This document shows positions 3,874 through 63,625 of a stretch of DNA of 64,000 nt, in pieces (within the stretch, counting starts at the first letter, position 1; every line of letters starts with the position of its first letter). Below the pieces are notes generated by a model. The model saw nothing but the letters and a program-made list of their open reading frames with translations, was not told the DNA's origin and searched no databases. The stretch covers positions 234 to 64,233 of the forward strand of contig CANRGD010000003.1 in the NCBI GenBank assembly GCA_947630105.1. The letters are read 5' to 3'. The position numbers were made by a program, and so were the translations under genes. This stretch comes from an uncultured Bacilli bacterium (GTDB lineage: Bacteria; Bacillota_I; Bacilli_A; RF39; UBA660).

Positions 3874-5877
<2,004 letters not shown>

Positions 5878-33656: not shown

Positions 33657-33740
33657 AATAAAATAAAATTCATTTCTTTACAAGCTTATAATTAAGATAT
33701 ATAATAAAAAAGAATAACTAAAATGAAGGGGAGTTTATTT

Positions 33741-35453
33741 ATGAAAAAAAGATATGTTTTATTATTTTTATTAATTATGCTATTAACATTTCAAAAAGTT
33801 AATGCTCAAACATTAAATGGCTTAGTAAAAATTAATAATAATTATTATTACTATATTAATAATGTAAAGCAACAAGGCTTTCAAACAATAAATGGAAAAA
33901 CTTATTTCTTTAGTAGAGTAAATGATCATGCTATGCGTACTGGAATATTCGCCATAGATGGGTATTATTATAATTTTAATAATGAAGGAGTAATGCAAAC
34001 TGGCTGGTACCAAAGTGATGGCAAAAAATACTATTTTGATACTAACGGAAGACGAATATCGGGTTTTAAAAATATAGATGGAGAAACGTACTTTTTCAGT
34101 CGTGTAAATAGTAACGATATGCGTACAGGAATATTTGCCATAGATGGGTATTATTATAACTTTAATAATGAAGGAGTAATGCAAACTGGCTGGTATCAAA
34201 GTGGTGGTAAAAAATATTATTTTGATACTAACGGAAGACGAGTATCAGGCTTTAAAACTATAGAAGGAAAAACATACTTTTTCAGTCGTGTAAATAGTAA
34301 TGATATGCGTACTGGAATATTTGCCATAGATGGGTATTATTATAACTTTAATAATGAAGGAGTAATGCAAACAGGCTGGTATCAAAGTGATGGTAAAAAA
34401 TATTATTTTGATCCTAACGGAAGACGAGTAGCAGGCTTTAAAACCATAGAAGGAAAAACATATTTTTTCAGTCGTGTAAATAATAATGATATGCGTACAG
34501 GAATATTTGCCATAGATGGCTATTACTATAACTTTAATAATGAAGGAGTAATGCAAACAGGTTGGTACCAAAGTGGTGGTAAAAAATATTATTTTGATAC
34601 TAACGGAAGACGAGTATCAGGTTTTAAAACCATAGAAGGAAAAACATATTTTTTCAGTCGTGTAAATAGTAACGATATGCGTACTGGAATATTCGCCATA
34701 GATGGCTATTATTATAACTTCAACAATGAAGGAGTAATGCAAACAGGCTGGTATCAAAGTGATGGCAAAAAATACTATTTTGATACTAACGGAAGACGAG
34801 TATCAGGTTTTAAAACCATAGATGGAAAAACATACTTTTTCAGTCGTGTAAATAGTAATGATATGCGCACTGGAAAAATAATAATTGACAATTTAATTTA
34901 TTATTTTGACAATAATGGAGTATTACAAACAAATATAAAGAAACCAATTTATTATAGTCAAAAAGATTCAAGATGGCAGTTTACTACTTTTGGTTTAGGC
35001 AATATGAAAAATACTGGGTGTGCCCCAACTGCTTTAGCAATGGCTTTTTCAACTTTGTTAAATAAAACAATATTACCTACAGATGTGGCATCATACTTAT
35101 TTTACAATACTAGAGAATTTAATCGTTCAACTGCAGGGGCAAGTGGTTTAGCAGTTCAATATGCCGCTAATTATTATGGAGTAAAATGGCAAGGCCTTAA
35201 TTCCTTAAGTCAAGTAAAAGAAGCTTTAAAAAATGGTAAAATTGTTTTTGCTAATGTTGGTCCTGGAAAATTTACAAAACCAAATTTAACTCACTCAATT
35301 ATAATATATGATTTATTAAATGAATATACAGAAGCATATGACCCCTACAATATAAACAATAATGGTGTTGTATCTATAGATTTAGTCTGGGCACAAAGAA
35401 GTTTTTCAACTTATGATTTAAAAGGAGGCTATGTATTCTATGCACTTGGATAA
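33741..35453 (+). CDS. Secreted cell-wall-binding-repeat protein with C-terminal C39-like (papain-fold) cysteine peptidase domain
   Basis: Signal peptide (…FQKVNA/QT). Six 62-aa glucan/choline-binding-type repeat units (GKTYFFSRVN..MRTGIFAIDGYYYNFNNEGVMQTGWYQS.GKKYYFD.NGRR). C-terminal YYSQKDSRWQ...GCAPTALAMAFS with a later HSIIIYD. Confidence 0.75.
   Translation: MKKRYVLLFLLIMLLTFQKVNAQTLNGLVKINNNYYYYINNVKQQGFQTINGKTYFFSRVNDHAMRTGIFAIDGYYYNFNNEGVMQTGWYQSDGKKYYFDTNGRRISGFKNIDGETYFFSRVNSNDMRTGIFAIDGYYYNFNNEGVMQTGWYQSGGKKYYFDTNGRRVSGFKTIEGKTYFFSRVNSNDMRTGIFAIDGYYYNFNNEGVMQTGWYQSDGKKYYFDPNGRRVAGFKTIEGKTYFFSRVNNNDMRTGIFAIDGYYYNFNNEGVMQTGWYQSGGKKYYFDTNGRRVSGFKTIEGKTYFFSRVNSNDMRTGIFAIDGYYYNFNNEGVMQTGWYQSDGKKYYFDTNGRRVSGFKTIDGKTYFFSRVNSNDMRTGKIIIDNLIYYFDNNGVLQTNIKKPIYYSQKDSRWQFTTFGLGNMKNTGCAPTALAMAFSTLLNKTILPTDVASYLFYNTREFNRSTAGASGLAVQYAANYYGVKWQGLNSLSQVKEALKNGKIVFANVGPGKFTKPNLTHSIIIYDLLNEYTEAYDPYNINNNGVVSIDLVWAQRSFSTYDLKGGYVFYALG
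33876..34940 (+). repeat. Tandem 186-bp coding repeats (about 6 units, >90% nucleotide identity by eye)
   Basis: The unit GGxTTTAAAAxxATAGAxGGAxAAACxTAxTTTTTCAGTCGTGTAAATAGTAA... recurs every 186 nt. Confidence 0.85.
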
Positions 35454-37641
35454 AAAAATTGTAAAAATAGCTTTAACTATTTTTGCAATAAATTTAATTT
35501 TATTAACATTTCAAAAAGTCAATGCTCAAACATTAAATGGCTTAGTAAAAATTAATAATAATTATTATTACTATATTAATAATGTAAAGCAACAAGGCTT
35601 TCAAACAATAAATGGAAAAACTTATTTCTTTAGTAGAGTAAATGATCATGCTATGCGTACTGGAATATTCGCAATAGATGGGTATTATTATAACTTTAAT
35701 AATGAAGGAGTAATGCAAACTGGCTGGTACCAAAGTGGTGGTAAAAAATATTATTTTGATACTAACGGAAGACGAGTATCGGGTTTTAAAAATATAGACG
35801 GAAAAACATATTTTTTCAGTCGTGTAAATAGTAACGATATGCGCACTGGAATATTTGCCATAGATGGTTATTACTATAACTTCAACAATGAAGGCATAAT
35901 GCAAACTGGCTGGTACCAAAGTAATGGTAAAAAATATTATTTTGATACTAACGGAAAAAGAGTATCAGGTTTTAAAACCATAGAAGGAAAAACATATTTT
36001 TTCAGTCGTGTAAATAGTAACGATATGCGTACTGGAATATTTGCGATAGATGGCTATTATTATAACTTCAACAATGAAGGAGTAATGCAAACTGGCTGGT
36101 ACCAAAGTAATGGTAAAAAATATTATTTTGATCCTAACGGAAGACGAGTAACAGGTTTTAAAACCATAGATGGAGAAACGTACTTTTTCAGTCGTGTAAA
36201 TAATAATGATATGCGTACCGGTACATTTGCCATAGATGGAACAACTTATACTTTTTTAGAAAATGGTGTTATGGTTAAAGGTTGGTACAAAAAAGGAAAC
36301 AATACATACTACTATAATCAAAAAGGTCTAAAAGTATCAGGCTTTCAAACCATAGATGGAAAAACTTATTTTTTTAGTAGAGTAAATGATCACGCTATGC
36401 GCACAGGCTTTTTTGCGATAGATGGGTATTATTATTACTTTAATAATGAAGGAGTAATGCAAACTGGTAAACAATATGTAAATAATGGTGAAAGATATTT
36501 TTCTCCTAATGGAAAAATGCAAACCGGCATAGTTTCAATAAATGGCAAAAAATATTTTTATAATACTAATGGTATTTTAAGCTATGGTTTTCAAAAAATT
36601 AATGGAAAAACCTATTTCTTCAGTCGAGTAGATGATCATGCTATGCGCACAGGCTTTTTTGCGATAGATGGGTATTATTATTACTTTACAGCTGATGGAG
36701 TTATGCAAGTAGGTTTTCAAACAGTTAATGGCTTAAAAAGATTTTTTAGTAGAATTGATGGAAAAATGCGAGTATCATGGGTATCTATTGATGGTTACAA
36801 ATATTATTTTGATCCTAGTACTGGTCAAATGATAACAGGTGAACAAACTATTGATGATGTTAAATATTATTTTAATTCTGATGGAAAATTAAAAGATGGT
36901 TTCGTATCAGATAGTAAAGGAAATACCTATTATTATTTTATAGATGGAACAAAAGCAACTGGCTGGGTACGAATCCAAGGCGAAAAATATTATTTCAATA
37001 ATAATGGTATTATGATTGGCAAGAATTTAAAAAAAATAATTGACATTTCTTCACACCAAGGTCAAATTGATTGGGATACAGTAAAAGCCAAAGGTGATAT
37101 TGATGGTGTAATTGTTCGAGTTGCATCTAGTTTTAATAGTGTAGACAGTATAGATAGTCAATTTGCTCGTAATATAAGCGAATTAAATAGATTAAAAATA
37201 CCATATGGAATATATCTATATAGCTATGCTGAAGATAAAATAAGTACAGTAAATGGTCTTGGAACTATGCATGAAGGAGCATTAGATGCTAGAATAATAA
37301 TTAATTCTATAAAAAAATATAATGTAAAACTTACTTATCCTATATATTATGATTTAGAAGTTTGGGAAACTGGCAAAAATAGACTTTGGAATTCTACAAT
37401 TTATAAACCTATAATTGATGCATTTGATAAAGAAATGAAAAATGCTGGATACAACTGGCAAATATATACAAATAAAAATTGGGCTTTAACTGCCTTAATA
37501 AATTATACAAATAAAATTACTTGGATAGCCCAATGGAGTAATAACTGTGATTATCCATATAATTATAATATATGGCAATACACTTCTTCAGGAAGTATAC
37601 CTGGAATTTCTGGTAGAGTAGATATTAACGTTGGATTTTAA
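35440..37641 (+). CDS. Secreted cell-wall-binding-repeat protein with C-terminal GH25 muramidase (lysozyme) domain
   Basis: Same signal-peptide/repeat module as the upstream gene, then more diverged repeats. C-terminal IIDISSHQGQIDWDTVKAKGDIDGVIVRV...YLYSYA...YYDLE GH25 motifs. The ATG at 35431 is an alternative start. Confidence 0.8.
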   Translation: MHLDKKIVKIALTIFAINLILLTFQKVNAQTLNGLVKINNNYYYYINNVKQQGFQTINGKTYFFSRVNDHAMRTGIFAIDGYYYNFNNEGVMQTGWYQSGGKKYYFDTNGRRVSGFKNIDGKTYFFSRVNSNDMRTGIFAIDGYYYNFNNEGIMQTGWYQSNGKKYYFDTNGKRVSGFKTIEGKTYFFSRVNSNDMRTGIFAIDGYYYNFNNEGVMQTGWYQSNGKKYYFDPNGRRVTGFKTIDGETYFFSRVNNNDMRTGTFAIDGTTYTFLENGVMVKGWYKKGNNTYYYNQKGLKVSGFQTIDGKTYFFSRVNDHAMRTGFFAIDGYYYYFNNEGVMQTGKQYVNNGERYFSPNGKMQTGIVSINGKKYFYNTNGILSYGFQKINGKTYFFSRVDDHAMRTGFFAIDGYYYYFTADGVMQVGFQTVNGLKRFFSRIDGKMRVSWVSIDGYKYYFDPSTGQMITGEQTIDDVKYYFNSDGKLKDGFVSDSKGNTYYYFIDGTKATGWVRIQGEKYYFNNNGIMIGKNLKKIIDISSHQGQIDWDTVKAKGDIDGVIVRVASSFNSVDSIDSQFARNISELNRLKIPYGIYLYSYAEDKISTVNGLGTMHEGALDARIIINSIKKYNVKLTYPIYYDLEVWETGKNRLWNSTIYKPIIDAFDKEMKNAGYNWQIYTNKNWALTALINYTNKITWIAQWSNNCDYPYNYNIWQYTSSGSIPGISGRVDINVGF
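35596..37010 (+). repeat. Tandem cell-wall-binding coding repeats (first ~4 units of the 186-bp type, then degenerate units)
   Basis: 35501-35800 is near-identical to 33781-34080 (offset 1720 nt). The period is 186 nt up to ~36240. Confidence 0.8.
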
Positions 37642-51612: not shown

Positions 51613-53438
51613 AACTTACTTTTCCATTAATTAAAATATTACTAAGTATTATTCTATATTGTATTTCCTTATTTTGTTTAAATTTAAATATAAAACTATT
51701 TTTTCTTTTAATTAGTTACCTAATCATAAGTTATGAAATTTATCTTGAAGCTTATAAAAATCTTAAAAATAAAGAGTTTTTTGATGAAAATTTATTAATG
51801 ATACTTGCGACTTTAGGAGCCTTTATTATAAAAAGTTATGAAGAAGCTGTTATGGTAATGTTACTATATAATATAGGCGAATATTTATCAGACTTAGCCA
51901 TAAATAATAGTAAAAAATCTATTACTAAAATTTTAGATTTAAGAATAGATACTATAACCTTAGAAAAAAATCAAAAATTATCCACCACTTCTATTGAAAA
52001 TGCTAAAATAGGGGATATTTTTATCGTAAAACCAGGAGAGAAAATTGCCTTAGATGGAAAAATCATTGCTGGAACATCTTATCTTGATACTTATCCTTTA
52101 ACAGGTGAAGCTATTCCCCAAAAAGTAACAATTGGAAGTGAAGTCTTAAGTGGTTGCATCAATAGACAATCACTTTTAAAAGTTCAAGCAACAAGCACCA
52201 TCCACACAACAACTGCTACTAAAATAATAAAATTATTAGAAGAAGCCGAAGATAAAAAAAGTACCACTGAAAGCTTTTTTAAAAAATTTGCTAAAATTTA
52301 TACACCAGTAATAATTTTTTGTGCCTTATTAGTAGCAATTATTCCCAGTATCCTAACAAAAGATTATTCCACATGGATTTATCGAGCATTAGTTTTTTTA
52401 GTTACATCTTGTCCTTGTGCATTAGTTATATCAATTCCTTTAGGCTATTTTTGTGGTCTCGGAGCAGCTAGTAAAAAAGGCATTTTAATTAAAGGCAGTA
52501 ATGAATTAGACAAAATTCGCTCTCTTGATTATTTAATATTAGATAAAACTGGTACTATTACTAAAGGTGTCTTTAAAGTAACAAAAGTAAAATCAAATAT
52601 ATTACCAGAAAAAAAGTTAGTGCAGTTAGTTGCTTCTGCTGAAGAAAACTCTCTTCATCCGATTGCCTCAGCTATAAAATCTTATAATAAAGAAAAACTA
52701 CTACCTGTTAAAAATTACCAAGAACTAAGTGGTCAAGGAATTACTTGTACTATTAATAATAAAAAAATACTTATTGGTAATAAATACTTAATGACTAAAA
52801 ATAATATTAAAGTAGCCGAAATTAATGAAATTGGTACAATCATTTATGTAAGTATAAATAATACCTATACTGGTTACATCGTAATAGCTGATGAAATAAA
52901 AGAAAGTTCCCAAAATTTATCATCCTTAAAATCATTCATTAAAAAAGATATCATTATTTTATCAGGGGATAAAAATGAAGTTGTTTCAGCTGTAGCTAAA
53001 AAATTAAAGATAGCAAAATATAAAGGAGAATTATTACCAACCGATAAAATAAAATATGTCCAAGAATATAAAAAAAATGGAGTAACTGCTTTTGTAGGAG
53101 ATGGAATTAATGATGCCCCTGTAATAAAAATTTCTGATATTGGTATATCAATGGGCATACTAGGAAGTGATGCCGCTATAGAAACTAGTGATGTAATACT
53201 TATGAAAGATGATTTAATGGCTTTAAAAGACGCTATTAATATATCAAAATTAACTAACAGAAAAGTCCTAGAAAGTATAATTTTTGCTTTAATTATAAAA
53301 TTATTAGTCTTAATTTTAGCTTTATTTGGTATTAGTACTATTTCTTTAGCAGTTTTTGCTGATGTTGGAGTAACTATTTTATCAATTTTAAATGTCTTAA
53401 CAATTATGCTTAGTAATAATAAAAAGGAGCTTAAATGA
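51609..53438 (+). CDS. Heavy-metal P1B-type ATPase (Cd/Zn/Co-type CPC motif) lacking an N-terminal HMA domain
   Basis: TGEAIP, SCPCALVIS, DKTGTITKG, GDGINDAP. The protein begins directly with TM helices. Confidence 0.9.
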   Translation: MKLTFPLIKILLSIILYCISLFCLNLNIKLFFLLISYLIISYEIYLEAYKNLKNKEFFDENLLMILATLGAFIIKSYEEAVMVMLLYNIGEYLSDLAINNSKKSITKILDLRIDTITLEKNQKLSTTSIENAKIGDIFIVKPGEKIALDGKIIAGTSYLDTYPLTGEAIPQKVTIGSEVLSGCINRQSLLKVQATSTIHTTTATKIIKLLEEAEDKKSTTESFFKKFAKIYTPVIIFCALLVAIIPSILTKDYSTWIYRALVFLVTSCPCALVISIPLGYFCGLGAASKKGILIKGSNELDKIRSLDYLILDKTGTITKGVFKVTKVKSNILPEKKLVQLVASAEENSLHPIASAIKSYNKEKLLPVKNYQELSGQGITCTINNKKILIGNKYLMTKNNIKVAEINEIGTIIYVSINNTYTGYIVIADEIKESSQNLSSLKSFIKKDIIILSGDKNEVVSAVAKKLKIAKYKGELLPTDKIKYVQEYKKNGVTAFVGDGINDAPVIKISDIGISMGILGSDAAIETSDVILMKDDLMALKDAINISKLTNRKVLESIIFALIIKLLVLILALFGISTISLAVFADVGVTILSILNVLTIMLSNNKKELK

Positions 53439-54637
53439 AAAAGAAAATTTTACTTATAATATTATCTATTATTTTATTAATTTTAATTATTGTAGGCTTT
53501 GTTTTTGCATACCAAAAATATCGTATTGCTCATGCCACAATTAAAGTTACTTTACAGGATAATTTAAATATTGAAGTGTATAGTAATGTAAAATTAAAAG
53601 ATCTTATTAAAAATATTAATGGTCAAATAACTAAAAATTTCTCTATTGATACAACTACCTTAGGAGAACAAGAAATTTCATTTTCCTACAAAAATGATGA
53701 CAACATTAAAGTTCCCTATAAATTTAAAATTAATATTGTAGATACAACTCCACCCATTATATCTCAATACAATACTTATTCTATAACAGTTAATCAAGAT
53801 GAAAATGTAGAAGAACAACTATTTTGTGGTGACAATTATGATGATAAACCCAAATGTGAATTAATTGGTAATTATAATAAAGATGAAGTTGGTACATATC
53901 CCGTAACATTTAAAGCAACAGATAGCTCTAATAATATATCTTCCTATGATTTTAATATAGTTGTCAAAGAACCACCAAAAAATTCCTCATCAACGCCATC
54001 TTTACCAGTAACAACTGATTTTAATGAAGTAAAAAATAATTACAAAACAAAAGATAATAAAATAGGAATTGATGTATCCCATTGGCAAGGAGATATTGAT
54101 TTTTCCCAAGTGAAAGAAGCAGGAGTTGAATTTGCTATTATCCGTTTAGGCAGTCAACGAGGAATAGATGGAGAATATTTTATTGATGATAAATTTGAAC
54201 AAAATATAAAAGGATTTAATGAAGTTAATATCCCAGTAGGAATCTATTTTTATTCTTATTCTAAAAATAAAAAAGCTGCTATAAAAGAAGCTAAATGGAT
54301 TATAAATAAAATAAAAAAATATGATATATCTTTACCAATTGTTTTTGATTGGGAAAATTGGTCTTTTTATCAAGAATTTAATTTAAGTTTTTATCATTTA
54401 ACAGAAATGGCTAATGCATTTTTAGAAACTATTGAAAAAAAAGGCTATACGGGAATGTTATATAGTAGTAAAAATTATTTAGAAAATATATGGATGGATA
54501 CTCCATATCCAATATGGCTTGCTCATTATACAGATAAAACTGATTATGAAGGCTCATATAAAATATGGCAATTATGTAGTAATGGCAAAGTAGCAGGGAT
54601 AAAAGATAACACTGTAGATATAGATATTATGTATTAA
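53435..54637 (+). CDS. Membrane-anchored GH25 muramidase with an Ig-like (DUF5011-type) domain
   Basis: N-terminal TM. TPPIISQ...GTYPVTFKATDSSNN Ig-like module. GIDVSHWQGDIDFSQVKEAGVEFAIIRLG...FYSYS...FDWE GH25 motifs. ATGA overlap with the ATPase stop. Confidence 0.8.
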   Translation: MKKKILLIILSIILLILIIVGFVFAYQKYRIAHATIKVTLQDNLNIEVYSNVKLKDLIKNINGQITKNFSIDTTTLGEQEISFSYKNDDNIKVPYKFKINIVDTTPPIISQYNTYSITVNQDENVEEQLFCGDNYDDKPKCELIGNYNKDEVGTYPVTFKATDSSNNISSYDFNIVVKEPPKNSSSTPSLPVTTDFNEVKNNYKTKDNKIGIDVSHWQGDIDFSQVKEAGVEFAIIRLGSQRGIDGEYFIDDKFEQNIKGFNEVNIPVGIYFYSYSKNKKAAIKEAKWIINKIKKYDISLPIVFDWENWSFYQEFNLSFYHLTEMANAFLETIEKKGYTGMLYSSKNYLENIWMDTPYPIWLAHYTDKTDYEGSYKIWQLCSNGKVAGIKDNTVDIDIMY

Positions 54638-59252: not shown

Positions 59253-60149
59253 ATGAAAAATTATTATATTGATCTTGGTTCTTCAACAATAAAATTTTAT
59301 TGTTTTGAAAAAGAACTTAAATTAATAGAAGAGCATTCTATTTATTTTAAAAATGACTTTAATGCTGAAACAGGTATTAGCGAAAATAATTTAAAAGAAC
59401 TTTGCCATTATTTTGAAAAAATAAAAGAAAAATATGATTTAAAATATTATAATACTCATATTTTTGTTACAGGAATTTTTAGAAATCTAATTCAAGAAAG
59501 AAAACAAGATTTAGTTAAATTGTTTAATGATAAATTTGATTTGCATTTTAATATAATTAGTCATGGAATAGAAAATTATTATTTAGGGAAAGCCTTAGAA
59601 AATGATTATAACAACAAAAAAGTTTTAATAATTAATATGGGTGGTAAAACAACAGAATTAGTAAGCTTTAATGGTTCTAAAATAATTGATACTCAAAATT
59701 TAACAATAGGAGTTGCAGATTTATTAAATAATTTTAATAAAGTAAATGATAAATATAGTGCTACTAAAGTAGAAGAAATGGAAAAATATGTGGATGATAA
59801 ATTAAGTACTTTAAAATTAGATACAGATTATGATTGTGCAATTTTTACTGGTGGAGAAGAAAGGTTTGAATTATTAACAGGATTTAATTTAGTGCCTAAC
59901 ACTTTATTTAATGATAATATTCATAAATATATGCTTAGTTTAGAAGATTATATTAAAGGTACAAAAAAAGTTTTTTATGATATCTCCCTTGAAGAATTAT
60001 ATGCTTTAATGCCATCAAATCCTAAATGGATGGATGGAGCAAGAAGTGGAGCTATCATTCCGTTAGTTTTATTTAAAAAAGCCCATGTAAAATGGATAAT
60101 TCCTTCTGATTTAAATTTAATAAATGGTGTAATTAATGATTTAAAATAG
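59253..60149 (+). CDS. ASKHA-fold protein, Ppx/GppA-phosphatase-like (two N-terminal domains only)
   Basis: IDLGSSTIKF (phosphate-1 loop), VTGIFRN, ISHGIENYYLG, INMGGKTTEL (phosphate-2 loop). Confidence 0.5.
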   Translation: MKNYYIDLGSSTIKFYCFEKELKLIEEHSIYFKNDFNAETGISENNLKELCHYFEKIKEKYDLKYYNTHIFVTGIFRNLIQERKQDLVKLFNDKFDLHFNIISHGIENYYLGKALENDYNNKKVLIINMGGKTTELVSFNGSKIIDTQNLTIGVADLLNNFNKVNDKYSATKVEEMEKYVDDKLSTLKLDTDYDCAIFTGGEERFELLTGFNLVPNTLFNDNIHKYMLSLEDYIKGTKKVFYDISLEELYALMPSNPKWMDGARSGAIIPLVLFKKAHVKWIIPSDLNLINGVINDLK

Positions 60150-60172: not shown

Positions 60173-60911
60173 GTGGTAAAGAATGTAATTTCTGTAATAG
60201 ATGGAGCAGCAGGAAGTTGTAGTAAAGCAAAAGTAATTGGTGAAATAGCTACTCTTGAATCTATTAATCTTGGAGCACCTGTTACTAATTGTATGCCCAA
60301 TGCAGGACATACTTTTGTTGATGAAAAAGGACAAGCTACAATTTTTAGAAATATACTTGTAGCAATTGTTAATCCAAAAACAGAATTATTTATTGGCCCA
60401 GGTTCTGCCATTGATATGGAAGTATTTAAACAAGAATATGAACTTCGCAATTACTTGCTGACTCAGGAATTTCTGCTGAAAAGTTACTTCAAACAATTAT
60501 GGTGATTCGTCCTTTTCCTATTAGAATAAGTAATATTACTAAATCAGGAGAATTTATTTATACAGGTGATTATGATAAAGGTGATGAACTTACATGGACA
60601 CAAATTAATTTAGCTTCTATGTATGGAAGTTATCCTGTTACAGACGATGTAGAATGTTTACCTTAGACATAGTTAAATTAAAAATAAATCGTCGTATTAA
60701 TACTCCATCAAGCTTATATTTAAACTTTTTTCAACATTTAGGCTTAGATTATAAAGGTAATATTGGTAACTTTAACGATTTTTATTTTAATAGATATTTA
60801 AGGGAATATTTTAATTGGTTTGAAAGTGAAACTAATGTTGAAATATTGGCATTGGGAATTGGTGCTAAAAACGGCGAGAGAATTTTAAAAAAAGAATTAA
60901 TAAAAAAATAA
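60173..60911 (+). pseudogene. Decayed adenylosuccinate-synthetase-superfamily (PurA-like, short archaeal/phage-type) gene: three fragments in three frames with an internal deletion
   Basis: Fragment 1 (60173-60505): VIDGAAGSCSKAKVIGEI...PNAGHTFVDEKG...IGPGSAIDMEVF, which matches the PurA N-terminus with the NAGHT motif. Fragment 2 (60445-60666, next frame): MVIRPFPIRISN...ELTWTQIN. Fragment 3 (60654-60911): LDIVKLKINRRINTPSSLYLNFFQHL, which matches the PurA C-terminal ...LTKLDVL region. Confidence 0.55.
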
Positions 60912-60946
60912 TTAAATATATTTTAATACTAATTAATGAGGAAAAT

Positions 60947-60976
60947 TTGACATTATAAATGTAAATGTGATATGAT
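60947..60976 (+). promoter_or_regulatory. Promoter TTGACA - 18 bp - TATGAT with extended -10 TG
   Basis: TTGACA at 60947-60952 and TGATATGAT at 60968-60976. Confidence 0.6.
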
Positions 60977-61002
60977 TTAATTGCTTTTGAAGGAGAGATT
61001 AT

Positions 61003-61068
61003 ATGTTAAACAATCAAATGACAACGACAACTTATACAACAACATTAAAATCAATTTTGTTATATTGA
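61003..61068 (+). CDS. Thr-rich leader sORF (21 aa: MLNNQMTTTTYTTTLKSILLY)
   Basis: AGGAG RBS 7 nt upstream. 7 Thr codons in 8 consecutive positions (61021-61044). Followed by a terminator. Lies upstream of the T-box and thrS on the same strand. Confidence 0.45.
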   Translation: MLNNQMTTTTYTTTLKSILLY

Positions 61069-61110
61069 TTGTTTTAGCTTTACTTATCAAAATATTTTTT
61101 CTAAATATGC

Positions 61111-61140
61111 AGGTCTATTACAATCGGTAATAGACTTTTT
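61111..61140 (+). terminator. Rho-independent terminator downstream of the leader sORF
   Basis: Stem GTCTATTAC / GTAATAGAC (9 perfect bp, extendable to 11), 5-nt loop, T5. Confidence 0.75.
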
Positions 61141-61183
61141 CATTAGATAAAAGATAATATATTATTAATATAAATACTATGAT

Positions 61184-61373
61184 ATGGGACACGATTATTA
61201 AGATCTTATTTTTAAAGAGAGTTATCAGTTGGTGAAAGATAATAAATAAACTTAATAGTTACTACCCATTAGTTGCACTCGCAAGAGATTGCCCGAACTT
61301 CGGTTAAAAAAATTAAGTAAAAAAGAGGATGGTACCGTCTTAATAGACTCCTAATGGTTCATTCTCTTTTTTT
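61184..61373 (+). ncRNA. T-box riboswitch leader, Thr (ACU) specifier
   Basis: Stem I with AGAGAG bulge and GTTGGTGAAAG distal loop. Specifier ACT followed by A at 61261-61264 next to the closing helix ATGGG/CCCAT. T-box sequence GAGGATGGTACCGTC (61325-61339). Terminator helix 61325-61366 plus a T-run. Confidence 0.8.
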
Positions 61374-61390
61374 ATTAAGGAGATGATTAT

Positions 61391-61438
61391 ATGACGGAAA
61401 CGGAAACTGATACAAGTTTCTCCCTCAAAAGCAAATAA
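61391..61438 (+). CDS. Second short uORF (15 aa: MTETETDTSFSLKSK) between the T-box terminator and thrS
   Basis: Strong AAGGAG RBS at 61378-61383. 4 Thr codons among codons 2-8. Stops 17 nt before the thrS ATG. Confidence 0.35.
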   Translation: MTETETDTSFSLKSK

Positions 61439-61455
61439 AAGAAAGAAGGTAAATT

Positions 61456-62991
61456 ATGAATAAAAAATGCTGTGAATTATTAAAACAAGTAATTAAAAAT
61501 GAATGTAAAGATATAAGTTTAGATAATATATCTTATAATGAAGACGAATTTTATTATGAATTTAAATCGGACAAACAAATAAGTGAAAATGATTTTGCAA
61601 GATTAGAAAAAGAAATTAAACAATTAGATAGAAATATTTATGTAAAACTTTTAAGGATAAGTGGAGTATATTTTGCAGGAAATGCTAATAATGAAATGAT
61701 TACTAGAATTGTTGGTAAAGCTTTTTCATCTCAAGAAGAATTAGATAAATATAATAAATTTTTAGAAGCAGCCAAAGAAAGAGATCATAGAAAAATAGGG
61801 CAAGATTTAGATTTATTCTGTTTTTCAGATTATGTAGGAGCAGGTCTTCCTCTATATACTCCAAGAGGAACTATTGTAAAAGATGAACTTCAAAAAGAAA
61901 TAGAGAGAGTATGTAAAAAATATGGCTTTCAAAAAGTAAGTTGTCCATCCCTTGCTGATATATCATTATTTGAAACTTCTGGTCATGCTGGGAAGTTTAA
62001 TGATGAACTGTTTAGAGTAGAATCACCAAAAGGACATAAATTTGTCTTAAAACCAGTACAATGTCCTCATCATACTCAAATATTTGCCTCTAAATTAAGA
62101 AGTTATAAAGATTTGCCAATTAGATATATGGAAAGTGATAAACAATATCGTGCAGAATTGCAAGGTGCTGTTGGAAATAGCTTATCAAGAGTATATGCTA
62201 TTACTGTTGAAGATGGACATTCATTTTGTACTAGAAATCAGGTTAAACAAGAAGTTATCAATATGTGCAATTTGATTAAAGATTTCTATTCTAGAATGGG
62301 ATTATGGAAAGATCATTGGGTCTCTTTATCAGTAAGAGATTATGATCATCCAGAAAAATATATTGGTAGTAAAGAAGATTGGGATATTTGTGAACAAATG
62401 CTTGAAGAAGTATCTGAAGAATTAGGACTTAATGCTAAAAGATGTGAAAAAGAAGCTGCTTTATATGGACCAAAATTAGATTTTATGTTTAAGGATGCTT
62501 TAGGTAGAGATATTCAAATTCCAACTGTCCAATTAGATTTTGCCATGCCTAAAAGATTTGGACTTTTCTATATTGATGAAAATGGTGAAAAACAAACTCC
62601 TGTCATGGTACATAGAGCAGTTTTAGGCTCTTATGAAAGATTTCTAGTATTATTACTAGAACAATTCAAAGGAGTATTACCGATATGGCTTTCTCCTGTC
62701 CAAGTAAATATTATTCCTGTTAATATAAAATATCACGATGAATATTGTAAAAAAATTAAACAACTTTTAGAAGATGAAGATATAAGAGTAGAGTATGATA
62801 ATTCTAAAGATAAAATAAATAAAAAAATTAGACAAAGTAATGTAATGAAAAATCCTCTAACTTTAATACTTGGAGATAATGAAAGAGATAATAATTTAAT
62901 AAGCTATCGTCTTTATGGTAATGATGATACCAAAACAATGCCTATTGAAAAATTTTTAGAATATATAAAAAATGAAATAAAGAAAAGATAG
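61456..62991 (+). CDS. thrS: Threonyl-tRNA synthetase, N-terminally truncated form (no TGS domain, no editing site)
   Basis: 511 aa. RDHRKIGQDLDLF occurs at residue ~109, against ~241 in E. coli ThrRS. Zn/catalytic residues present (VQCPHH, EDGHSF, VHRAVLGSYERF). Anticodon-binding domain present. T-box with Thr codon upstream. Confidence 0.9.
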   Translation: MNKKCCELLKQVIKNECKDISLDNISYNEDEFYYEFKSDKQISENDFARLEKEIKQLDRNIYVKLLRISGVYFAGNANNEMITRIVGKAFSSQEELDKYNKFLEAAKERDHRKIGQDLDLFCFSDYVGAGLPLYTPRGTIVKDELQKEIERVCKKYGFQKVSCPSLADISLFETSGHAGKFNDELFRVESPKGHKFVLKPVQCPHHTQIFASKLRSYKDLPIRYMESDKQYRAELQGAVGNSLSRVYAITVEDGHSFCTRNQVKQEVINMCNLIKDFYSRMGLWKDHWVSLSVRDYDHPEKYIGSKEDWDICEQMLEEVSEELGLNAKRCEKEAALYGPKLDFMFKDALGRDIQIPTVQLDFAMPKRFGLFYIDENGEKQTPVMVHRAVLGSYERFLVLLLEQFKGVLPIWLSPVQVNIIPVNIKYHDEYCKKIKQLLEDEDIRVEYDNSKDKINKKIRQSNVMKNPLTLILGDNERDNNLISYRLYGNDDTKTMPIEKFLEYIKNEIKKR

Positions 62992-63102
62992 TATTAATAT
63001 GAGAAAACTTGAAAATTTAGAGCTTTTTTAATAAGATACAAATCTATTATATTTAATGTGTATTTAAATAGTATATTGCATATCTATATGGGGAAAAAGA
63101 AA

Positions 63103-63625
63103 GTGAAAAAATTATTTTTATATAGAACAATTGTTGAAACAGGAAAGATAGAAGATAATTCTAAAGAATTTAATAGTTCTTAGTATAATCAAGTATAAAT
63201 TTTGATGAATTATTATGTTTAATTAAAGCAGTTGATATTGGTTTTTTAAAATCTTTAGTAATATATGAAATGCGAGATTAGGAATGTATTCTTTTGATGT
63301 CATAAAAGGACAAGGTGTTTGTTTAGCTTATGCTAAACTATTATAGAATTATTTATCAATATATGGAAAAAATTCTTCAATTTTAAATTGCAAAGTACCA
63401 ACAGAAAAAAATGCCATTAGCTGCAATTATCGCCCGAAAATAGAAAGAAATACAAAAAAATAATATGAGCAGTAAAATTTTTAGTAGTTTTACGACATTA
63501 TTTCTAAAGTGGTTAATAAATAAATTTGGAAATCATGCTGTAACTTTAATTGAAGAAAACAATAAGAATCATAAGCATCATCTAATAAACCTATATTATT
63601 ATTTATTAGCTCCATTAAATTTTCA
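63103..63625 (+). pseudogene. ORF debris, possibly a decayed transglutaminase-like/cysteine-protease-fold gene
   Basis: Short fragments in several frames, interrupted by stops: VKKLFLYRTIVETGKIED..., YSFDVIKGQGVCLAYAKLL*, ...FGNHAVTLIEENNKNHKHH... The G-x-C...H pattern is only suggestive. Confidence 0.3.

Follow-up and report, generated by a model that had tools for sequence, protein, structure and literature searches.

The 64,000-nt window analysed here, a stretch of contig CANRGD010000003.1 from an uncultured Bacilli bacterium, carries upstream of its threonyl-tRNA synthetase (ThrRS) gene thrS (61456–62991) a short leader element at 60947–61140, which we interpret, with a probability of about 0.8, as a kinetic transcription attenuator in which a ribosome translating a leader peptide senses charged tRNA-Thr and thereby controls thrS. 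Positions are those of the window, and all features of the leader, the T-box that follows it and thrS lie on the + strand. Leader-peptide attenuation is a textbook mechanism of the Proteobacteria, whereas Firmicutes are thought to rely on T-boxes, and ribosomes trailing the polymerase have been proposed as one reason for this reliance. The original prediction, made from the sequence of this stretch, read the leader and the T-box as possible dual control of thrS, by ribosome sensing and by tRNA sensing. This core reading is strongly supported because the Thr codons vary synonymously, rare codons are enriched, the antiterminator is conserved, the stop codon is consistently placed, and a sister element exists in which the Thr run is replaced by a Cys run.

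The element opens with promoter P1 (60947–60976), composed of a TTGACA hexamer (60947–60952), an 18-nt spacer and an extended −10 sequence TG-A-TATGAT (60968–60976); with 11 of 12 positions matching, and the TG in addition, it is the top promoter match in 60500–63400, and relatives have TTGACA followed by TATGATATTAT at the equivalent place. A Shine-Dalgarno (SD) sequence AGGAG (60991–60995) lies 7 nt ahead of the ATG of the leader open reading frame (ORF; 61003–61068), which comprises 21 codons, encodes MLNNQMTTTTYTTTLKSILLY and ends with TGA. Seven of eight consecutive codons at 61021–61044 are Thr codons (ACA ACG ACA ACT TAT ACA ACA ACA), and this regulatory codon run is the sole site in all six frames of the window with at least six ACN codons per eight. 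Promoter, ribosome-binding site and Thr-rich ORF are present as the original prediction had described them. The same holds for the intrinsic terminator at 61111–61140 (hairpin 61111–61137), with an 11-bp stem, a loop AATCG and a T run, except that the gap after the stop codon is 42 nt rather than 43; it is the only terminator-like site in the region, where 0.4 would be expected. No family of Rfam 15 besides the T-box gave a match in 60800–61600 (E ≤ 0.1) or in the whole window (E ≤ 0.01), and by these comparisons the leader element is a member of no described sequence family, Thr_leader included.

Conservation was assessed in 80 species-level metagenome-assembled genomes (MAGs) fetched as relatives of the window thrS, and in an alignment of 51 leaders. 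A leader ORF with a Thr run and a terminator is found upstream of thrS in about 50 of the 80, with the consensus MLNNQL-TTTTxTTT-KSIxxIDCFSI, so that the conservation before orthologous thrS genes that had been proposed as a check is indeed observed. Thr occupies 248 of 510 positions (49%) in codons 6–15 of the leaders, compared with 6.0% in the genes of the window (15,330 codons), and ACG, the rarest Thr codon, makes up 21% of the leader Thr codons vs 1.4% in window genes, a 15-fold enrichment. In the codons of the run AC is retained and the wobble base varies freely (entropies of 0.39, 0.50 and 1.73 bits at the three positions of codon 8), which, at the level of sequence, is the signature of selection on coding. 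The GGAG of the SD sequence is near-invariant across the alignment, the TG of the start codon is invariant and the ATG nearly so. The DNA 5' of the −35 hexamer is, by contrast, unrelated among loci, even between L009 and L010, whose leaders are identical, and hence the element belongs to, and travels with, thrS and not the upstream gene.

The alternative RNA structures centre on a switch strand, region 2 (ATTGATTGTTTTAG, 61064–61077), which holds the leader stop TGA (61066–61068) and is complementary to three other strands. Region 0 (AACAATCAA, 61009–61017), in codons 3–5, is the upstream complement and the anti-antiterminator strand; region 1 (AAATCAAT, 61048–61055), just past the Thr run, is the second complement; and region 3 (CTATTACAATCGG, 61115–61127), which contributes the 5' arm and loop of the terminator (regions 3:4), is the antiterminator partner. 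The two upstream partners are copies of AATCAA; the region 0 block is near-invariant as AACAATCAAT in codons 3–6, and region 3 as CTATTACAATC, and regions 1 and 2 hardly vary either. Duplex energies in the window are −11.7 kcal/mol for 0:2, −5.0 for 1:2, −12.6 for the antiterminator 2:3 and −13.6 for the terminator 3:4. The original prediction had proposed folding the leader in search of mutually exclusive structures, and these are found, 2:3 on the one hand and 0:2 or 1:2 together with 3:4 on the other; its caveat that no obvious antiterminator helix could be seen does not hold, since region 2 pairs either with region 3 or with regions 0 and 1. The minimum free energy (MFE) fold of the free leader contains 0:2 and the terminator (z = −4.05), and RNAalifold, run on the 51 leaders, independently predicts the 1:2 hairpin and the terminator. 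The local 1:2 hairpin could act as a pause or anti-antiterminator hairpin. Decoding under genetic code 4, in which TGA would not be a stop, is disfavoured by long table-11 ORFs throughout the window; under code 4 the leader ORF would stop anyway, at a TAG inside region 2.

Across the 49 distinct leader sequences used for pairing statistics, the terminator is paired at 98.8% with compensatory changes in 8 of its 10 pairs, the 2:3 core at 97.5%, 0:2 at 94% and 1:2 at 97.4%. Changes in the helices of region 2 are nearly all transitions that preserve G-U pairs with every partner, and the true compensatory changes in 2:3 number two (L034 and L048, ATTGgTTG with CAAcC or CATcC). Such near-invariance is what is expected for a strand that has to fit three partners.

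The position of the stop codon points in the same direction. Measured from the first base of region 2, the stop of the leader ORF ends at −4 to +33 nt in every locus, although region 2 is read in three frames among species: the 'IDCFS' of the consensus is one frame of it, the ORF of the window, L002, L004, L028 and others stops at a TGA inside ATTGATTG, and a third group of leaders has the reading NWLF and stops at a TAG. This placement over three frames indicates that region 2 is conserved as RNA and not as peptide, and that a ribosome finishing the ORF would always be on or beside it. Ribosome positions were modelled by masking a 27-nt footprint on RNA cut before region 4, followed by folding. 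With the ribosome in the first 10–11 codons 2:3 is usually the best fold, and with the ribosome at the stop or within the final ~8 codons (in the window, the last three positions) region 2 is blocked.

From the anatomy of the leader, its conservation and codon statistics, the alternative pairings and the exchange of Thr for Cys codons before cysS described below, we infer that the leader ORF is translated, that ribosomes stall on the run and that read-through depends on tRNA-Thr charging. In the proposed mechanism the first 21 codons of the P1 transcript would be translated. When Thr-tRNA is plentiful, the lead ribosome would reach the stop inside region 2 and cover this strand while regions 3 and 4 are made, the 3:4 terminator would form and transcription would end at about 61140; after release of the ribosome, region 0 or 1 would sequester region 2. 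Under Thr-tRNA scarcity, a ribosome stalled within 61021–61044 would cover region 0 and/or region 1, leaving region 2 free to pair with region 3, so that the terminator would be blocked and the polymerase would enter the Thr T-box. There a second, ribosome-independent decision would be taken on uncharged tRNA-Thr, and a further small ORF with rare Thr codons, described below, would probably tune thrS translation in the manner of Bacillus subtilis rtpLP.

The strongest argument for the codon run as the sensor comes from a second synthetase gene. Metagenome contigs were scanned for the bare DNA motif ATTGATTGTTTTAG-N20-50-CTATTACAATC, with no condition on thrS, which gave 37 loci; a thrS match lies just 3' in 24 of them and most of the others end within a few hundred nucleotides. 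Three long loci have no thrS match, L094, L081 and L117. The copy in L081 was rejected as a chance match in GC-rich DNA, and L117 has a leader and a T-box on a contig that diverges inside the T-box terminator; minus-strand matches in L017, L025, L069 and L085 are reverse-complement echoes of the same element. The scaffold in L094 (minus strand, ~4762–4927) encodes MKNNQLNNCICCCKFNDYIDCFRVY and is directly followed by a gene starting MKIYNTLTRKVEEF, identified as cysS through relatives that are annotated as cysteine-tRNA ligase and contain PF01406. For six cysS relatives the contigs were fetched. The four closest (L118–L121, 82–92% identity; ~1035–1200) have the scaffold with TGATTGTTTTAG and CTATTACAATC kept, and their Cys leaders read MKSNQFKKCMCCCNF, MKNNQYKNCLCCCIK, MRNNQLKTCLCCCCK and MKYILLNNLCCCCK (each incomplete), the first of these, in L118, having been read by eye because the automatic ORF filter saw no SD sequence there. 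The TGY runs before cysS in L094 and L118–L121 encode CICCC, CMCCC, CLCCC, CLCCCC and CCCC, and region 0 is kept in these leaders too. No T-box accompanies the scaffold at the cysS loci, and the T run ends ~20 nt before the cysS ATG with no room for a promoter, from which it follows that this essential gene is expressible there by read-through only. The codon run thus tracks the regulated synthetase, Thr for thrS and Cys for cysS. In the two most distant cysS relatives (L122 and L123, 72–74% identity) the scaffold is absent. A tiny ORF in L122 (~1128–1160), MKKYAKRCC, with two terminal Cys codons, lies ~45 nt upstream of cysS; it may be a chance ORF or a different Cys-sensing upstream ORF. Other synthetase genes of these genomes may carry further versions of the scaffold.

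The T-box follows the leader at 61170–61355, with the specifier ACU at 61261–61263 and the T-box sequence AGGATGGTACCG. It matches RF00230 over the full length of the model (positions 1–219) with 63 bits (E = 3e-13; 2.6e-11 when the whole window is searched), short of the gathering score of 93 bits, which is why a default Rfam scan at gathering thresholds gives no matches in the window. The hallmarks in the Rfam alignment are ACU-A at 61261–61264, AGAGAG at 61216, GUUGGUGAAAG and AGGAUGGUACCG, and the T-box terminator, a hairpin with a T run, lies at 61319–61376 (local fold −21.7 kcal/mol). ACU-A is the specifier in 38 of 40 related T-boxes, the exceptions being L015 (ACU-C) and L038 (AAU); 14 of the 40 (12 ACU-A, L015 and L038) were missed by a regular expression and read by eye. 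The gene behind the T-box encodes a 511-residue threonine-tRNA ligase that matches the NCBIfam equivalog TIGR00418 with 504.7 bits (cutoff 383.65). The T-box with an ACU specifier and the thrS identity of the gene, both claimed from the sequence earlier, are borne out by these matches, and the T-box does come after the leader terminator, with the model starting ~30 nt past the T run and not 45.

Several observations weigh against the attenuator as set out above. The scaffold is kept in L015, L040, L041 and L042 although the Thr run is down to a single Thr codon; L070 likewise has one Thr codon with regions 0, 2, 3 and 4, SD sequence and ATG kept, and the Thr-sensing model leaves these five leaders unexplained. 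(L041 and L070 also lack the T-box and the second leader ORF described below.) Covariation in 2:3 is weak, because its strands hardly vary, and is not significant in shuffle controls. Masked folding agrees with the model for a ribosome on the first Thr block, but on the second Thr block of the window (codons 12–14) a masked ribosome gives 0:2 and not 2:3; 0:2 would then have to form around the stalled ribosome, which steric hindrance or a ribosome following behind may impede. When region 4 is included, the MFE fold keeps the terminator at nearly every ribosome position, so that, the terminator being always the most stable structure, the switch would have to be kinetic, as in trpL. A kinetic switch must have a ribosome that keeps pace with the polymerase, and transcription-translation coupling is reported to be largely absent in B. 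subtilis (PMC7858274). Finally, among the 35 distinct loci that have both leader and T-box, 24 have a TGnTATAAT-like extended −10 in the spacer that separates the T-box from the leader terminator, and in species with this extended −10 the T-box is, as read from the promoter sequence, independent of the leader.

This last point bears on whether the two devices act in series, as the absence of a convincing second promoter had led the original prediction to propose, with the T-box transcript probably having to read through the first terminator. A possible weak second promoter, P2 (TAGACT-16-GATAAT, 61131–61158, with GATAAT at 61153–61158), does lie in the spacer of the window; its 9/12 match, however, is no better than that of shuffled AT-rich sequence, and a plain −10-like hexamer is all that the window and L004 show there. 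Obligatory read-through is well founded for nine of the 35 loci in which the spacer is at most 22 nt, several of them with 0–12 nt, and no promoter fits. It does not carry over to the 24 loci with an extended −10, and the window is ambiguous. Dual control is thus well supported, whereas passage of every T-box transcript through the first terminator applies to the short-spacer species only and is not secure for this genome, in which the attenuator may feed into the T-box, with P1 as the only promoter, or act alongside it with an added weak P2.

A stronger version of the latter arrangement would be a leader that forms a mostly dead-end unit and contributes little to thrS expression, with practically all T-box–thrS transcripts arising from a promoter in the spacer (61131–61158) and the released RNA or peptide perhaps acting in trans. 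Besides the 24 relatives with an extended −10, this is favoured by the closest relative, L002, which has TGGTAAAAT where the window has GATAAT; by L016, where the leader (2551–2781) is degenerate, its start codon changed to AAG and its terminator lost, but region 2, an extended −10 (TGATATAAT) and the T-box are kept; and by known trans-acting small RNAs derived from attenuators, such as rnTrpL (PMC6614838). L016 is, on its sequence, an example of a leader that is dispensable when the T-box has its own promoter. Against this, the spacer of the window lacks the TG and its match is at chance level, and there is no promoter room in the nine short-spacer T-box loci, in the T-box-less L085 or in all five cysS loci. 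The T-box is lost and the leader stands directly before thrS in L025, L039, the L043 group, L046, L048, L050–L052, L056, L083 and L085; in L085, L083 and the L043 group the leader directly precedes the second leader ORF and thrS, the spacer of L085 being too short for a promoter and that of L083 retaining a TATAAT-like hexamer. Moreover, P1 is the strongest promoter in the region, and read-through from it would add to expression even with an active P2. We consider a dead-end leader unlikely in the window, with a small but appreciable chance of being correct.

A different objection to the attenuator is that its terminator/antiterminator switch might be set by a signal other than Thr-tRNA, the codon run being secondary. 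The signal could be general translation capacity, for which any stall or slow initiation at the leader ORF would be enough. It could also be a protein, for example the synthetase, bound to the terminator loop or to the invariant region 2 in the way E. coli thrS is autoregulated. Regions 0, 2 and 3 are indeed much more conserved than the codon run, only one to three Thr codons are found on the kept scaffold in L015, L018, L020 and L040–L043, and a masked ribosome anywhere in codons 1–10 yields the antiterminator. However, one scaffold carries ACN codons before thrS and TGY codons before cysS, rare cognate codons are enriched, and the invariance of region 2 is accounted for by its three pairing partners. 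Inspection of region 2, the terminator loop and the second leader ORF for a mimic of the tRNA-Thr anticodon arm, as in E. coli thrS autoregulation, revealed none, and this ThrRS is without N-terminal domains. Such a signal seems to us quite improbable. That the leader ORF instead encodes a small protein, for example one of the membrane or of a signalling pathway, or that it arose by chance beside the terminator of the preceding gene, is hardly credible: its own promoter, SD sequence and terminator and its hydrophobic C-terminal part would suit a small protein, but the C-terminal half is read in three frames among species while its nucleotides are fixed, the upstream genes vary among loci but the linkage to thrS does not, in front of cysS the run consists of Cys and not Thr codons, and no other site in 64 kb and six frames reaches six ACN codons in eight.

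Between the T-box terminator and thrS lies the second leader ORF (uORF2; 61391–61438), which encodes MTETETDTSFSLKSK and is preceded by a strong SD sequence, AAGGAG (61377–61382). It has 4 Thr codons among 15 codons, and its stop ends 6 nt before GAAGG (61445–61449), the SD core of thrS inside the conserved AGAAAGAAGG. The pattern MTETExDT recurs in uORF2 of 43 among 47 distinct loci, the rare ACG and ACC account for 117 of 143 Thr codons in it (81%), compared with 12% in genes, and in 26 of the 47 loci its stop lies 3–11 nt before the thrS SD core. It is longer in the T-box-less L043, L050 and L052, with 28–29 codons and 6–8 Thr. To judge from this arrangement, uORF2 has an rtpLP-type layout, placed after the T-box terminator, with cognate codons and with a stop within the ribosome footprint of the SD sequence. 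We infer that it adds a translational layer to thrS control, and this is the least tested part of the model.

A more general proposition, to which we give even odds, is that regions 0, 2, 3 and 4, almost invariant in sequence, constitute a portable scaffold that is re-targeted by codon swaps (Thr, Cys and possibly others), that the attenuator, T-box and uORF2 together provide three independent readers of tRNA-Thr, and that the lead ribosome and the polymerase are coupled in these bacteria, unlike in B. subtilis.

The classical leader-peptide attenuators of Proteobacteria are thrL of thrABC, hisL, trpL and leuL, and pheM leads E. coli pheST. The window shares with them a short ORF, a run of cognate codons, the 1:2, 2:3 and 3:4 helices, a terminator and a stop codon at which a terminating ribosome would mask region 2; the energy ladder is similar to that of trpL, and pheST is a precedent for an aminoacyl-tRNA synthetase gene under attenuator control. 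The window differs from these systems in having no sequence or Rfam relationship to them, an AT-rich Bacilli host, an extra anti-antiterminator copy (region 0 in codons 3–5), a T-box of the same specificity downstream and a scaffold common to two amino acids. Closer in taxonomy are the His leader peptides that Naville and Gautheret (2010, PMC2965389) predicted for the Bacillus group, ahead of hisZ and of hisS paralogues, and a Leu-rich attenuator peptide has been reported for Staphylococcus aureus ilv (PMC5794164). Both are cases of leader-peptide attenuation in Firmicutes, and the Bacillus His leaders resemble the window further in preceding a paralogue of a synthetase gene, where they take the place of T-box control or occur beside it within the gene family; the His and Leu leaders differ in amino acid, sequence and taxon, are not stacked with a T-box in the same leader, and have no reported codon-swapped sister element.

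The peptide rtpLP contains three Trp codons and lies after a T-box; a ribosome that finishes it blocks the next SD sequence, and one stalled on the Trp codons does not. It belongs to a close parallel for the combination seen here, the B. subtilis rtpA (anti-TRAP) operon, which has a T-box and a leader peptide (Chen and Yanofsky 2003, 2004, cited in PMC10327191). In rtpA, and by prediction in the window, two devices in tandem read one tRNA species, a T-box at the level of transcription and a ribosome that stalls on the cognate codons of a short ORF, and uORF2 shares the layout of rtpLP, lying past the T-box terminator with its stop a few nucleotides before the SD sequence of the regulated gene. 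In rtpA the leader peptide comes after the T-box and its effect is on translation; the window has an additional predicted attenuator ahead of the T-box, giving three sensors compared with two, its amino acid is Thr, and the regulated gene is that of the synthetase itself. The combination of T-box and leader peptide for the same amino acid, which the original prediction called unusual, thus has a precedent in rtpA, and what is unlike rtpA is the attenuator ahead of the T-box. The T-boxes of thrS and thrZ in B. subtilis and other Firmicutes share with that of the window a Stem I Thr specifier, a T-box with UGGU and a terminator/antiterminator before thrS; the window T-box is reduced, without Stem III and part of the Stem II region, and is preceded by the leader-peptide module.

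A literature search found no description of a Thr leader peptide before thrS, nor of the scaffold. New are the element family, its re-use with different codon runs, and the stacked arrangement in which it shares one synthetase mRNA with a T-box and an rtpLP-like uORF. The thrS leader of a large uncultured group of gut Bacilli thereby brings together a predicted attenuator, a T-box and a translational uORF, offers a natural experiment in attenuator re-targeting through a codon-run swap, and is a test case for why a cell reads one tRNA both on and off the ribosome. Should the attenuator work, it would be an informative, if indirect, probe of transcription-translation coupling in a lineage not yet grown, and annotators gain the motif TGATTGTTTTAG … CTATTACAATC for small ORFs that are now unannotated.

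The host has ~25% GC and is an RF39-like uncultured member of the Bacilli, not a classical cultured Firmicute. The nearest relatives of the window are gut and rumen MAGs labelled uncultured Bacilli, Mycoplasmatota and 'Mycoplasma sp. CAG:776/877'. The alignment of the window ThrRS to TIGR00418 covers model positions 118–564 of 565, and Pfam identifies tRNA-synt_2b and HGTP_anticodon only; TGS and editing (tRNA_SAD) domains were not found by Pfam or in this alignment, which starts at position 118. On this evidence the enzyme has no TGS domain at its N terminus and little of the editing domain, a short form that is the rule among RF39-like relatives, and editing of Ser-tRNA-Thr may be absent or supplied in trans. 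From about residue 62 on, the protein is 62–65% identical to proteins of MAGs labelled Saccharibacteria, Parcubacteria or Moranbacteria; an exact-sequence look-up of it gave no match.

Upstream of the leader, three consecutive overlapping ORFs in different frames (60173–60911; 110, 55 and 85 residues), the first with a weak adenylosuccinate-synthetase match (PF00709, E = 1e-5, below cutoff), look like a frameshifted, decaying PurA-like gene by their sequence, and a Ppx/GppA-family gene (59253–60149) is their neighbour. Elsewhere in the window, a 575-residue DDE transposase (PF01609; 18713–20440) in a low-GC stretch between cell-envelope genes suggests an insertion sequence. At 33723–37641 and 53435–54637, two adjacent choline-binding-repeat proteins, one with a C39-like peptidase domain and the other with a GH25 muramidase domain, and a further GH25 protein downstream indicate that the cell has a wall whose polymers are decorated with choline, even though its relatives bear 'Mycoplasma' labels.

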